Below, in pieces: positions 14,849-60,952 of a stretch of 64,000 nucleotides of DNA; position 1 is the first letter of the stretch, and the number at the start of each line of letters is the position of its first letter. The notes beneath the pieces are model-generated. The model made no database searches and was not told where the DNA came from. It worked only from the letters and a program-made list of their open reading frames with translations. Both the position numbers and the translations under genes were made by a program. This DNA is from an uncultured Bacilli bacterium (GTDB taxonomy: Bacteria; Bacillota_I; Bacilli_A; RF39; UBA660), in contig CAKPKR010000006.1 of NCBI GenBank assembly GCA_934167465.1, positions 3,299-67,298 of the forward strand. Direction: 5' to 3'.

Positions 14849-16249
14849 CTAATCTTCTATTGGTTCAGGCTTACCAAATATTTCAGTCATTCTATTTATG
14901 AAATTTACTACTGCCTCATTTTTTCCTATATTTTCATAAATTGAATTCATATCCTTTTCGGTAATATTTTCATAATTAATTCTTTCTTTTGAAAGAATAT
15001 TTGTAAATGGTTCATCAGTTTGTTCAATATTTGTATTGCTATTAATATTAATTGTAGCAATCAATTCATCATTATCCTTAATATTAATATTAAATTTTGA
15101 ATTATTAGTGTTTATACTATCTTTTTTGGTTATTTTATTTGTTAAATTTCCATCAATAGTTATCCCTGAACTAACTACATTATAATCAATATCAATTAGT
15201 TCTTTTGTTATTTTTGAATTAATTGTAATATTCGTTTTTTCTTCATCATTTTGAACATTAATAATTGTTTTATATTCATTTTCTTTTTGTTTTTTAGATG
15301 TTAATTCAGCTACTTTTTTTCCTGTTATATATAAATTTCCATAAATAACATCATTATAATTATAAATATTTAGTTTTCCTAAATTATTAAAATTAATTTC
15401 AAAGCCAATATAATCATTTAATAACCCTTTTGTGTATAAAGAAAGTGATACAAAAGTTTCATTTTCAAATTCAGTTTCTGCTTCTAATTCTTTTATAAGT
15501 TCATTAATACTAGACTCTATTTCTTTTTCATCAACTTCTCCTAGTTCAGAAATATATTTAATAAATTTTTTATCTTTTTCTAAATCTTTCAATGTATTAA
15601 TTAATAATTTAATTGTTTTTTCTTCAGTGAATTCATATTCTATTTTATTTACTTCAATTTTATTTTTTTGAATATTTAATTTTTCTTTTGATTTTTTAAA
15701 ATCTTTTTGATTTAAATTTTTAAACAAATTATCTTTAATAGTTTTTAAAACATATTTAATTTTACTAATTTCCATATTAGAGTTTTCAAATAATGAATCA
15801 TACTCTTCGTATGGAATCTCAATATATTTATCATATAAATTTTTAAGTTCAACATAAAAATTTTTATTTTGTCCATACATTGCAACATCAAATAAATCAT
15901 TTTTATCATATTTAGTGTTTAATTCAAATGAGAATTCTTTACTTTTATAATCTTGAACAGCATTTATAAAAAATTGCAACTTATTAATTTCATCTAAAAT
16001 ATTCTGATCAATTACATCTTTATATTTATCACTAACATTAAAATCAAAAGATAAATCACTATTTAATTTAGTTGTTTTATCATAAGAAACATCTATATTA
16101 TCTAGTGTATCTTCTATATTTTTATATCCTTTATTTAATATTTTAGCAAAAATATTTTTTGAATTATTTAAATATAAATATGTTCCTCCTAGTAAAACAA
16201 TAACAACGACAGGTAAAATTATCCATAATTTATTTATTTTTTTCTTCAT
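14849..16249 (-). CDS. membrane-anchored Asn/Lys-rich protein, unknown function
   Basis: Start set at ATG 16249 (MKKKINKLWIILPVVV, GAGGAG RBS). The longer ORF would run through a terminator and promoter. Confidence 0.6.
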   Translation of the reverse strand: MKKKINKLWIILPVVVIVLLGGTYLYLNNSKNIFAKILNKGYKNIEDTLDNIDVSYDKTTKLNSDLSFDFNVSDKYKDVIDQNILDEINKLQFFINAVQDYKSKEFSFELNTKYDKNDLFDVAMYGQNKNFYVELKNLYDKYIEIPYEEYDSLFENSNMEISKIKYVLKTIKDNLFKNLNQKDFKKSKEKLNIQKNKIEVNKIEYEFTEEKTIKLLINTLKDLEKDKKFIKYISELGEVDEKEIESSINELIKELEAETEFENETFVSLSLYTKGLLNDYIGFEINFNNLGKLNIYNYNDVIYGNLYITGKKVAELTSKKQKENEYKTIINVQNDEEKTNITINSKITKELIDIDYNVVSSGITIDGNLTNKITKKDSINTNNSKFNINIKDNDELIATININSNTNIEQTDEPFTNILSKERINYENITEKDMNSIYENIGKNEAVVNFINRMTEIFGKPEPIED

Positions 16250-16274
16250 ATAACTTACTCCTCTTCTGAGGCTG

Positions 16275-16303
16275 ATTATAACAGAAAAAAAGATATTTTG
16301 CAA
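16275..16303 (-). promoter_or_regulatory. sigmaA-type promoter TTGCAA-17-TATAAT for gene 14849..16249
   Basis: Read on the minus strand. The -35 lies in the loop of the upstream terminator hairpin. Confidence 0.55.
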
Positions 16304-16309
16304 TATCTT
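16284..16309 (-). terminator. intrinsic terminator ending the non-coding unit
   Basis: Minus strand AAGATATT-GCAA-AATATCTT followed by TTTTTCT. Confidence 0.55.
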
Positions 16310-16895
16310 AAAACAATGGCGATTAATATAGTTAACTTTATGTCTTAGGTCAAGTAGAATTTCTCTAGTTTTTACTTATCGTTACCAATAAGCGGTTCCC
16401 CTTTGAAAAAACCAATATACCGTTACCAAATATATGACTTGATTACCACTTAGTACATACTGCAATCCTATATTAGCACTCTAGGAATTTTCTTCAACAA
16501 CAATTTATTATTAATTCTTTTTTGCAAACATAGTTTCATAAAGCAATAATATTATTATATTGGCCAAAACAATAATATCTGTCATTAATCCCCTATATTC
16601 ACTCAAGACAAGCTACGCTACTCGTAAGTGATCCCCACATAGTAGGTTTAATCCTAAATCGTCACAAGTCCATCAACTTTCGTGTATAGGCTTATAACAA
16701 GTTTAGGTCTCCACGAATACTGGGTCGATTGCGTATGCCATTACGGTCGCCCAACATTCTATCTTCCAGCACTCACCCTACACTGGGCGTATAAAGCAAG
16801 CACCACAAGCTTCACAGATGTGCTCTTTAATGGATTTTTAGCCCCATCTTCATAATAAATTTAATTGACTAGAATAATGTGCCATCAATTTATAT
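16284..16895 (-). ncRNA. candidate large structured non-coding RNA (about 610 nt, class unassigned)
   Basis: The unit runs from its own promoter to its own terminator with stops in all six frames. The core 16590-16860 is markedly G+C richer than its surroundings. Several helices have G-U pairs only on the minus-strand transcript. Confidence 0.5.
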
Positions 16896-16900
16896 ACAAA

Positions 16901-16929
16901 ATAATAGCAAATATTAGAATTATTGTCAA
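16901..16929 (-). promoter_or_regulatory. sigmaA-type promoter TTGACA-17-TATTAT driving the non-coding unit
   Basis: Read on the minus strand immediately after the tkt terminator hairpin (16963-16982). Confidence 0.55.
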
Positions 16930-29149: not shown

Positions 29150-29716
29150 TTAATTAATTCCAATAATATAGTAAAAATATGGTGCATTTCCTGATGCAGA
29201 AAATGTAATACTATTACTACCTTTTGGAAGATTTAGTCGATATCCAATACCATAAGTAAATGAACCATAATCATTACCACTATTAAATATAGAATTTTTA
29301 AGTGGTACCCACGAATTTGTTTGCTTGATATATCCATTCTTATCACTAGAAAAGGCTAATGCAACTTTATATGATTTTGAAGTAGTAAAATTAAAAGTAT
29401 AATCACCAACCCAATTATTACCTGATACAATAATAGCAACCTCAGATATATTTGCACTTGCACTTACACCTATTATAAGTTATCCTTTTACTACTGCTGT
29501 TTTTCCATTCAATATATCATTTGCAGTTGCATCGCCTGAACTTTTTATTTTATAAATATCATTTAAAACTTCATTTACAGTCATACTTGTTCCATCACTT
29601 ACATTATATACAACATCACTTGCTTTATATGTGACCGCTGCATATAACGTTCCACTTATACATATAATCATTGTAATTATTACTAAAAATATTCTGCTTT
29701 TCATTATTTTTTTCAT
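29150..29716 (-). pseudogene. decayed member of the conserved-N-terminus secreted protein family (in-frame TAA at 29480-29482)
   Basis: The 78-aa ORF continues in the same frame for about 110 further codons after one TAA, down to the stop at 29150-29152. The N-terminus is paralogous to 46710..47534 and 60274..60897. Confidence 0.7.
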
Positions 29717-29739: not shown

Positions 29740-29771
29740 ATCATACCATCCCCCACAGACGATTTTATCAA
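29740..29771 (-). promoter_or_regulatory. degenerate copy of the family promoter (TTGATA-20-TATGAT) with an interrupted G tract
   Basis: Aligns with 47557-47587 and 60922-60952. The tract reads GTGGGGGATGG on the minus strand. Confidence 0.45.
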
Positions 29772-46655: not shown

Positions 46656-46687
46656 ATAAAAAAACTGTGTTTTATAATTACACAGTT
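46656..46687 (-). terminator. intrinsic terminator of 46710..47534
   Basis: AACTGTGT-loop-ACACAGTT followed by a T run on the minus strand. Confidence 0.7.
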
Positions 46688-46709: not shown

Positions 46710-47534
46710 TTATGAAAGTTTTGATTTAGGAATTGTTATTACTGGACGGATGCCTAATGTATTATATTTAACTTCAGAATCAGATAAAGTACCATGGTAA
46801 TCAATTCTCATAACAGTATTATTAGATCTAACAAATGGCGTTGAAGTCCAATAACCATATGTTGCTATTGATTCAGAAACATTACATCCATAAGAAGTGC
46901 AACTATTTGTATAATCAAACAACCAAGCATATCTACTTGTTCCTTTTCCACTAGCAGTTTGTGTTTCACTATTACTATCCAAATAAAAACCAGAAACTTG
47001 ATGAATATATTTTTCGTTTTCGGTTATGATTGCAATTTCTTTATCTGTTATTAATCTTGGTATATTTTTCCAGTTTGAAACACTAACAAGTTTATCTACT
47101 TCCACCTTTAAATTACTTTCTTCATACGATACATTTTTATTATCATTATTCCAAGCAATCATAGCAGTTGTGTTATGATCTAATATCATATTCACCGTTG
47201 AGGAATCCGAAGAATCATTAAATATATACCATTTCATACATCCAACTTTATTTTCATTTTTACTATTATCTTCAACGTAATCTTCACATATTTCTCCACT
47301 TACTGGATTATAATATATTACTGTTCCATTTTTATAAAAATAATTATAACCTTTTTTATTAATTTTATTATATAATTCATTTAAAGCATCATTTACATTC
47401 ATACTACTTCCATCACTTGCATTATATACTACATCTGTTGCTTTATATGTTGTTGCAGCATATACACTTATACTAGTAACTATAATAGTTGTAATTATTA
47501 TTAAAAATATTCTACTTTTTATTATTTTTTTCAT
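46710..47534 (-). CDS. secreted protein, conserved-N-terminus family, C-terminal YW(T/L)S...G(I/V)RPVI-type domain
   Basis: Signal peptide MKKIIKSRIFLIIITTIIVTSISVYA, then the shared module TYKATDVVYNASDGSSMNVNDALNELY, then a unique 215-aa C-terminus. Confidence 0.8.
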   Translation of the reverse strand: MKKIIKSRIFLIIITTIIVTSISVYAATTYKATDVVYNASDGSSMNVNDALNELYNKINKKGYNYFYKNGTVIYYNPVSGEICEDYVEDNSKNENKVGCMKWYIFNDSSDSSTVNMILDHNTTAMIAWNNDNKNVSYEESNLKVEVDKLVSVSNWKNIPRLITDKEIAIITENEKYIHQVSGFYLDSNSETQTASGKGTSRYAWLFDYTNSCTSYGCNVSESIATYGYWTSTPFVRSNNTVMRIDYHGTLSDSEVKYNTLGIRPVITIPKSKLS

Positions 47535-47556
47535 TTATAACACCTATCCTACTTAG

Positions 47557-47587
47557 ATTATACCCCCCCCCCAGACGTAAAAGTCAA
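47557..47587 (-). promoter_or_regulatory. family promoter TTGACT-19-TATAAT with G10 tract in the spacer
   Basis: Minus strand TTGACTtttacgtctGGGGGGGGGGTATAAT, read directly. Confidence 0.6.
47563..47572. repeat. homopolymeric C10 (G10 on coding strand)
   Basis: Counted in the sequence. Confidence 0.95.
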
Positions 47588-47798
47588 GAAAAATGTTACA
47601 ATTTTTTTATAAATTTTGTAGAACTTATTATATTTTTTAAACATTATTATAGTTCAAAATTAAAAAGAACCAAAGTAGCACTACCTTGGTTCAAATGTAT
47701 TAAATTAATAATACAGTATATTATATGTAAACAAAAAATATAATTATTATATAATTGATTATTTTGTCAATAAATGTTACAATTTAGTAGGTGATAGT

Positions 47799-60273: not shown

Positions 60274-60897
60274 CTATTTTTTCATATATACTTCATATAT
60301 ATTAACAGTTTTAGAATAAGCTTCTAATACTACATAAAATTCACCTGATAAATATGGAACTGATAATTCAATTAAATAATGACCATTATCTAATTTTTTT
60401 GATTGACTACTTCCTATGCATAACGACGTTGTATAACCATAATCAGTTCTTTGTAATGACATTGAATCTGGAGTTGTCATTGTACCTATACTTATATTTT
60501 GATTATCGACTTCAAAATATATTTTACTATAATCAGTTAAATTAACCTTTTTTGATGTTGTTAAATTAGAACTATAGCTTCCACCGGGAGCTACAAATGT
60601 TAAATGATCAGAATTAAGTGTTAATGTTGAGTATTGTGATTGAAATCCTTTTCTCCAACCACCTGTAATATCAGAATATACATTACCTGCTTTATATAAA
60701 TAATACTTAGTTTCATCTTCTATCTTTTTATTATATAACTCATTTAAAGCATCATTTACATTCATACTCGTTCCATCACTGGCATTATATATTACATCAC
60801 TTGCTTTATATGTTGTTATGGCATACACTCCTATACTTGTAAACATTATAGCTGTTAATATAAAAATAAATATTCTACTTTTCATTATTTTTTTCAT
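60274..60897 (-). CDS. secreted protein, conserved-N-terminus family, beta-sandwich-like unique C-terminus
   Basis: MKKIMKSRIFIFILTAIMFTSIGVYA + TYKASDVIYNASDGTSMNVNDALNELY, then a unique 150-aa domain. Confidence 0.8.
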   Translation of the reverse strand: MKKIMKSRIFIFILTAIMFTSIGVYAITTYKASDVIYNASDGTSMNVNDALNELYNKKIEDETKYYLYKAGNVYSDITGGWRKGFQSQYSTLTLNSDHLTFVAPGGSYSSNLTTSKKVNLTDYSKIYFEVDNQNISIGTMTTPDSMSLQRTDYGYTTSLCIGSSQSKKLDNGHYLIELSVPYLSGEFYVVLEAYSKTVNIYEVYMKK

Positions 60898-60921: not shown

Positions 60922-60952
60922 ATCATACCCCCCCCCCAGACGTAAAAGTCAA
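60922..60952 (-). promoter_or_regulatory. family promoter TTGACT-19-TATGAT with G10 tract in the spacer
   Basis: Minus strand TTGACTtttacgtctGGGGGGGGGGTATGAT, read directly. Confidence 0.6.
60928..60937. repeat. homopolymeric C10 (G10 on coding strand)
   Basis: Counted in the sequence. Confidence 0.95.

Follow-up and report, generated by a model that had tools for sequence, protein, structure and literature searches.

In Mycoplasma hyorhinis, the vlp surface proteins form a multigene family in which promoter, 5′ region and signal peptide are conserved and the mature parts diverge, and a poly-A tract in each promoter spacer allows the members to be switched on and off independently. In Bordetella pertussis, the fimbrial subunit genes fim2 and fim3 are controlled through spacing by a poly-C tract between the activator region and the -10 hexamer. 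Work on phase variation in gut commensals has concentrated on invertible promoters and methylation. Here, we describe a tract of ten guanines (G10) in the promoter spacer of a secreted-protein gene from an uncultured Bacilli bacterium of the RF39 lineage that lives in the human gut. The gene, termed member B, lies in a 64,000-nt stretch (the window) of contig CAKPKR010000006.1, assembly GCA_934167465.1, together with two further family members, A and C. We consider it probable, at roughly 70%, that the tract is a hypermutable homopolymer in a sigma-A-type promoter spacer and serves as an on/off switch of the kind described for porA and tp0126, an estimate based on sequence comparison.

The nearest described parallels are poly-G promoters of pathogens. 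For Neisseria meningitidis porA, a poly-G tract lies between the -35 and -10 hexamers, where its length sets transcription via hexamer spacing (PMC7864442). For Treponema pallidum tp0126, which encodes an OmpW homologue, a poly-G tract likewise lies between the two hexamers, with the best transcription at a spacer of 17 nt (PMC7864442). Within T. pallidum isolates, poly-G tracts range from G7 to G11, and tprL is on at G8 and near background at G10 (PMC7864442). The locus in the window resembles tp0126 and tprE/G/J/L in that poly-G lies in the promoters of genes for surface proteins (predicted here), several of them paralogous. It differs in coming from uncultured gut Bacilli instead of a spirochaete pathogen, in belonging to an unrelated gene family and in being known from sequence alone. 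Moreover, the start site of the tpr genes lies a few nucleotides after the tract, so that the tpr tract is not in a classical spacer. As for porA, it is a single porin gene of a Gram-negative pathogen, in which opc has a poly-C tract, and its common tract lengths give spacers of 16–17 nt, whereas the common length here gives 19 nt, two above the optimum. Relative to vlp, the tract is poly-G and not poly-A, the products are of lectin-like or pilin type and not tandem-repeat lipoproteins, and the genes are scattered among housekeeping genes, whereas vlp genes are clustered. The likeness to fim2/fim3 lies in a conserved block upstream of the -35 that could act as an activator site; fim2 and fim3 are BvgA-dependent and lack a good -35, whereas the -35 here is near consensus.

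Anatomy and conservation of the poly-G promoter

The initial annotation had read the element as TTGACT-tttacgtct-G10-TATAAT on the minus strand (47587..47557), with near-consensus hexamers and a 19-nt spacer, and had called a G10 tract improbable by chance and the spacer two nucleotides longer than optimal. All parts of the element match the minus strand of the window, which reads directly as ttcTTGACTtttacgtctGGGGGGGGGGTATAATctaagtaggataggtgttataaATG. The -35 hexamer agrees with the consensus at five of six positions and the -10 hexamer at all six. Runs of at least seven G occur at only two sites in the 64 kb, namely this promoter and the promoter of member C, identical through its tract at 60937-60928. 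Eight overlapping G7 matches were observed in the window against 0.35 expected, and none of 100 dinucleotide shuffles reached eight, in agreement with the stated improbability. The off-optimum length also stands: among 26 promoter-like sites upstream of window genes, each matching at least 5/6 positions in both hexamers, spacers peak sharply at 17 nt (11/26; for example, TTGACA-17-TATAAT upstream of rplJ), and the only 19-nt spacers are those of B and C, with A at 20 nt. Expressed as tract length, G8 corresponds to a spacer of 17 nt, G9 to 18, G10 to 19 and G11 to 20.

The tract occupies the same place in contigs from at least 13 independent samples, covering several projects and assemblers; thus, the tract is not an assembly artefact of the window. 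The TTGACT -35 is invariant across all B-locus and C-locus contigs and across eight paralogous promoters of sample OGPT01. Transcription of B would start about 7 nt past the -10, and the tract, being upstream of the -10, would therefore not be transcribed from its own promoter. An intragenic frameshift switch was considered and rejected, given that the tract ends 28 nt before the B ATG and an in-frame TAA directly abuts that ATG, which places the G tract outside the coding sequence.

In diverged metagenome-assembled genomes (MAGs), the non-G spacer sequence has changed and the geometry of -35, 9 nt, G(n) and -10 is kept. Examples include TTGAAA-aatgtgcct-G10-TATAAT (L002), TTGCCG/TTGCTG-9 nt-G9-TATAAA (L008, L115) and TTGCCG-agagcaaac-G(n)-TAAAAA (G10 in L038, G9 in L054). 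One contig (L076) carries an interrupted GGGAGGGGG tract with a spacer of exactly 17 nt. Another subfamily has TTGACA-3 nt-G10-11-TG-TATGAT/TATGCT, with spacers of 15–16 nt, and no tract was found at a pilin-type homologue (L117-L119). That the G run stays uninterrupted in a changing sequence context suggests that the run as such is under selection.

Within one of these subtypes, a different feature was observed. The stretch G(9-10)-TA(T/A)AAA-CC(C/T)CTC-T6-7 (L008 2949-2990, L038 2477-2515, L054 2436-2475, and L115) could form a terminator-like structure, a G:C/G:U hairpin with a U-run behind it, and is preceded in the same four contigs by a GGCAAA-N8-TTTGCC hairpin. The hairpin of this subtype may constitute a second control layer.

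Tract length across samples and spacer length across species

Comparing tract length between sources, a check that the initial annotation had put forward, reveals G9, G10 and G11 across metagenome assemblies in which the sequence on either side of the tract, or at least on its upstream side, is identical. Contigs were retrieved via exact matches to the B or C protein or to the adjacent pgsA-like protein, and lengths are assembly-consensus calls at 2-8x Illumina coverage. At the B locus, nine samples have G10, three have G9 (ERZ4561431, ERZ4561110 and ERZ27287303) and one has G11 (ERZ918518), where the first T of the -10 reads G. At the C locus, G10 was found in five samples and G11 in one; among eight paralogous promoters sharing the core in one other metagenome, seven have G10 and one has G9. 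When about 1.2 kb of the B locus was aligned, seven contigs equalled the window exactly. For two G9 contigs (L083, L084), the missing G is the sole difference from the window over this length, and the third (L082) shows further differences only past the end of gene B. The G9 form was recovered by both assemblers and in two projects. As controls, 25 other homopolymers in the B and C loci (A/T of 7-8 nt, C5) were invariant in every sample, and so was the interrupted tract of pseudogene A in all ten samples inspected for it.

Additional changes were seen at the boundary between the tract and the -10. In two contig comparisons (L121, from ERZ918518, vs L122; L111 vs L112), the first T of the -10 is either replaced by G (G11-AAGAT) or absent (G10-ATGATA); changes of this type would extend the run and at the same time impair the -10.

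Poly-G spacers were then surveyed in other species, taking one genome per species. A scan for TTGA-N10-14-G9-TATRAT returned at least 113 loci in more than 110 species representatives. Among the matches listed, these loci are mostly from gut or other host-associated organisms, mostly have perfect TTGACA and TATAAT hexamers, and most commonly have a non-G flank of 9 nt; their taxa include Clostridia, Bacilli, Selenomonadales, Saccharibacteria, Treponema, Mucispirillum, Streptobacillus, Helicobacter and Streptococcus suis. Pooling these loci with a second scan (TTGACA-N5-16-G7-TATAAT, spacers of 12-23 nt) gave 132 sites with 127 distinct flanks among the matches listed, a scope that applies to all the spacer counts that follow. 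The sites number 1 at 13 nt, 5 at 14, 16 at 15, 18 at 16, 9 at 17, 24 at 18, 37 at 19, 15 at 20, 4 at 21, 2 at 22 and 1 at 23. This distribution is bimodal, with one cluster at 15-16 nt, another at 18-20 nt and a trough at 17 nt between them. When the loci of the first scan, which were slightly over-sampled, are given less weight, the 17-nt class contains about 8.6 sites, where the adjacent spacer lengths would predict about 19.7 (P ~0.0025). Restricted to G9 tracts, the numbers at 15, 16, 17, 18 and 19 nt are 12, 11, 2, 14 and 13. Spacers lying 1-2 nt on either side of 17 are what an off-by-default switch predicts. Furthermore, a hydrophobic N-terminus is encoded by 63% of the downstream open reading frames (ORFs), compared with 21% of control ORFs at the same loci (odds ratio 6.6, p = 3e-23).

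Two further observations concern the surveyed sites. Consensus TTGACA/TATAAT promoters with a run of G7-G16 abutting the -10 (L124-L292) are spread over more than 100 species from several phyla, the majority host-associated, and mostly precede genes for signal-peptide proteins; the base preceding the tract is C in 62% of sites, both among the matches listed.

Mechanism and competing explanations

The variation between samples, the off-optimum spacer, the kept geometry and the secreted products all fit the sequence-level predictions of the phase switch that the initial annotation had proposed. Under this mechanism, slipped-strand mispairing at replication would lead to the gain or loss of a single G, the change in G(n) would alter how far apart the -35 and -10 lie, and transcription of the secreted lectin-like gene would change with it, presumably reversibly and at a high rate. 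The predicted output is weak or off at G10, partly on at G9 and fully on at G8, with each family member switched independently by its own tract. Family members share the promoter, 5′ leader and N-terminal signal-peptide module and differ in their C-terminal domains; with the same switch before each of them, individual cells could display different combinations of surface proteins. More tentatively, promoter, poly-G switch, leader and a signal-peptide or pilin N-terminus may together form a portable module that has been attached to many lectin-like heads, whose copies would undergo independent G-tract slippage and be reshuffled through short-patch gene conversion. In the same tentative proposal, consensus promoters with a poly-G spacer would be off by default, set 1-2 nt on either side of the 17-nt optimum.

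Several observations weigh against the tract being a switch. All the lengths are low-coverage Illumina consensus calls over G10, an error-prone context, and the control homopolymers, being shorter (7-8 nt), are not a like-for-like error control. G10, with its 19-nt spacer, is the consensus in about 80% of observations, and the predicted optimal G8 (17 nt) was seen at neither the B nor the C locus; G10 could therefore be the selected functional state instead of the "off" state. Additionally, a conserved block, ACGAACAAAATTTCTGC, lies directly upstream of the -35 and is a hint of further regulation, perhaps through an activator. Problems in sequencing through the tract are evident as well: one contig (L123) finishes in poly-C junk, and many others are broken there. 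Tract heterogeneity within a population and the repeated promoter and N-terminal module would account for the breaks equally well.

The contigs that begin or end at or within a few nucleotides of the tract are L087, L091, L092, L101, L103, L105, L108, L113, L116, L017, L039 and L123. Breaks at family promoters could be caused by the repeated module, by tract heterogeneity or by poly-G read artefacts.

Some of these points would suit a static promoter element that arose by paralogue duplication, is kept for contact with a regulator or RNA polymerase or for DNA stiffness, and works at 19 nt, with G9 and G11 being errors. The strong dominance of G10 at all loci is consistent with such an element, as are the low coverage, the visible artefacts at the tract (L123) and the possibility that the block upstream of the -35 binds an activator. 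Nevertheless, errors would have to explain why G9 recurs, on DNA that is otherwise the same, in three samples that span two projects and two assemblers while the control homopolymers are invariant, and tract length also varies among orthologous and paralogous promoters of other species. The surveyed spacers, among the matches listed, fall on both sides of 17 nt and avoid 17 itself, a pattern that one shifted optimum cannot give, and the G-tract spacers of porA and tp0126 keep the ordinary 17-nt optimum (PMC7864442). We regard a static element as unlikely. A shift of the optimal spacer to 19 nt by the G tract itself is disfavoured by the same survey and by the same 17-nt optimum of porA and tp0126 (PMC7864442).

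Recombination offers a different role for the tract, as the junction within a homology block of promoter, tract and N-terminal module that would be used for gene conversion or cassette exchange. Consistent with this, the 27 nt right after the tract, comprising the -10 and leader, have been swapped in L097/L102, with 16 substitutions there against 1 in the remaining ~900 nt. Three -10 alleles with their leaders occur at the B locus (TATAAT, TAAGAT and TATGAT; including L098/L122), and the leader differs before an identical protein C (L092, L094). The patch looks like short-patch gene conversion between family promoters. However, exchange between paralogues needs only the ~250 nt that they share and no homopolymer, and it leaves unexplained both the single-G differences on identical haplotypes and the occurrence of the same architecture before unrelated single-copy genes of many phyla. 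As the sole explanation, recombination is improbable, and a role in recombination would be compatible with a length switch. Less probable still, and in our judgement very improbable, is an RNA-level role, in which a more distant upstream promoter would transcribe the tract and the tract would act through leader structure, as half of a terminator or through reiterative transcription. The subfamily of L008/L038/L054, with G(9-10)-TAAAAA-CCTCTC-T6, could form a hairpin and U-run, but the window elements are without the C-rich partner, and their predicted folds leave the G run unpaired in a loop with a z-score of only about -2. No other minus-strand promoter-like site was found between the upstream terminators and the tract, no Rfam match was obtained at the locus, and the tract lies upstream of the inferred start and not at it.

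Two other candidates were rejected. An inverton was dismissed because only AT-rich low-complexity inverted matches were found, none common to both loci, and all contigs show a single orientation. A G-quadruplex was dismissed because there is one G run only.

Family products, genomic context and implications

The family products are probably secreted or surface-bound lectin-like binding proteins, likely adhesive, as judged from sequence features and a structural model. The N-termini of A, B and C share MKKI(I/M)KSRIF..., a hydrophobic segment running to ..VYA-A and then TYKA(S/T)DV(V/I)YNASDG.SMNVNDALNELY, and diverge afterwards; B combines a signal peptide, bearing a VYA-A cleavage-type site, with a conserved family module of ~60 aa. 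Pfam and NCBIfam searches of A, B and C returned no significant family, and a sequence search of the PDB gave no match. Against Pfam, B showed only Lcl_C at a weak E = 0.13, in addition to a weak precomputed match to DUF6273, and the homologue in L008 scored 23.9 bits against a gathering cut-off of 23.5 for the DUF6273/Lcl_C-type model. The AlphaFold model of B has a pLDDT of 77.6, exceeding 85 across most of residues 70-170. It matches the structure of a Thomasclavelia ramosa IgA peptidase (E = 5e-4), and Foldseek retrieved the C-terminal domain of Legionella Lcl (probability 0.84) and many C-type lectin domains.

The homologues of B number 711; no source gives a name to any of them, and many are annotated as PF19789 (DUF6273). 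All relatives of B that were found come from gut MAGs of humans and animals that carry the labels uncultured Bacilli, "Tenericutes" or Bacillota, with many copies per MAG and contigs that often break at the 5′ ends of the genes. The type IV prepilin motif (GFTLIE...) is absent from the N-termini of A, B and C. Many homologues of other MAGs are fused to a type IV pilin N-terminus (GFTLIELL; PF07963, E = 1.5e-7). Lectin-like C-terminal domains on pilin N-termini were observed in L017, L038, L039, L044, L054 and L056, in genes preceded by G6-G10 tracts; in L044, three pilin paralogues lie in tandem, and the G9 upstream regions of two of them are identical.

The features of the window are listed in Table 1. 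The window covers a housekeeping region; the bacterium is low in GC and uses genetic code 11. Genes and elements in the region include rpoB/rpoC, an L10 leader, nusG, secE, aspS, pheST, a Mur ligase and an OLE RNA.

Table 1. Coordinates of the promoter elements, family genes and B terminator in the 64,000-nt window
Feature	Position	Strand	Basis or remark
-35 hexamer TTGACT, member B promoter	47582..47587	-	read from sequence
Non-G part of the spacer, tttacgtct, 9 nt	47573..47581	-	read from sequence
Poly-G tract, G10 on the coding strand, proposed slippage-prone switch	47563..47572	-	read from sequence
-10 hexamer TATAAT	47557..47562	-	read from sequence
5′ leader ctaagtaggataggtgttataa, 22 nt, with AGGTG Shine-Dalgarno	47535..47556	-	ATG at 47534
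Family member B, 274-aa secreted protein, 825-nt ORF	46710..47534	-	signal peptide, family module and lectin-like domain
Terminator-like hairpin and U-run closing the B transcript	46656..46687	-	z = -3.3; 0/200 shuffles fold as well
Second proposed switch promoter, member C, TTGACT-tttacgtct-G10-TATGAT	60922..60952	-	sequence; tract at 60937-60928
Family member C, 207 aa; N-terminal module as in B, other C-terminal domain	60274..60897	-	
Decayed promoter, member A, TTGATA-aaatcgtct-gtgggggatgg-TATGAT	29740..29771	-	sequence
Family member A, pseudogene; single in-frame TAA after codon 78, frame runs to ~29150	29150..29716	-	

The gene B cassette sits between the pgsA-like gene and secE, with a terminator-like hairpin at 47692-47667 upstream of its promoter. 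After the B terminator, secE has a separate promoter-like site (TTGACT-17-TAATAT), and the promoter of gene C follows the terminator hairpin of aspS. Given B's own terminator and the aspS terminator before C, the two genes appear to be separate transcription units with room for just this promoter, and the hairpin after B makes it a monocistronic cassette. The promoter of member A has a 20-nt spacer with an interrupted tract at 29756-29746. Its truncated product was found on 23 contigs, and the interrupted tract is identical in 10/10 inspected samples (L293-L302), whereas both the G9 tract and the ORF are intact in a close A-like paralogue from a different sample (L110); in this species, therefore, the decayed tract and the dead gene go together. 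A search for the exact promoter word in a genome-contig collection gave only chance G4 matches.

Further observations were made in and around the locus. In L082 (ERZ4561431), gene B, with its G9 tract, is followed by a gene for a 270-aa sigma-70-family protein and not by secE/nusG, the divergence beginning just past the B stop; this arrangement reflects either structural variation or a second site of the cassette in the genome. A promoter-like TTGACA-16-AATAAT lies at 47770-47743 on the minus strand, and the hairpin at 47692-47667 with a T-run follows about 50 nt later. The region 47660-47770 on the minus strand could thus encode a small transcript of ~70 nt between the pgsA-like gene and B, for which no Rfam match was found. 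The OLE RNA (RF01071) at 16300-16901 on the minus strand is full length (397.8 bits, model positions 1-616) and directly 5′ of an unannotated 484-aa ORF at 14849-16303, which is without a Pfam hit.

The mechanism proposed here is textbook. Searches of the literature on RF39, uncultured gut bacteria and homopolymer promoter switches yielded no description of a promoter-spacer homopolymer switch in uncultured gut Bacilli. Within the searchable literature, neither this lineage, nor the family of DUF6273-type lectin-like proteins and pilin fusions, nor the extent of the architecture among gut MAGs appears to have been described. A joint and wider proposal, that uncultured gut Bacilli practise mycoplasma-like antigenic variation and that a poly-G-spacer switch for secreted proteins is widespread among host-associated bacteria of several phyla, is advanced only tentatively, and we would not bet on it in full. 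If the switch operates as predicted, reduced-genome commensals would diversify their surface lectins and pilins cell by cell, as do Neisseria, Treponema and Mycoplasma, which would bear on IgA evasion, phage resistance and adhesion. It would also provide a reason for the assembly breaks at these genes. The signature of -35, ~9 nt, G(n) and -10 offers a way to find contingency genes in metagenomes. Should the broad proposal prove true, contingency loci based on simple sequence repeats would form a major part of phase variation among gut microbes that has so far been overlooked, beside invertons.

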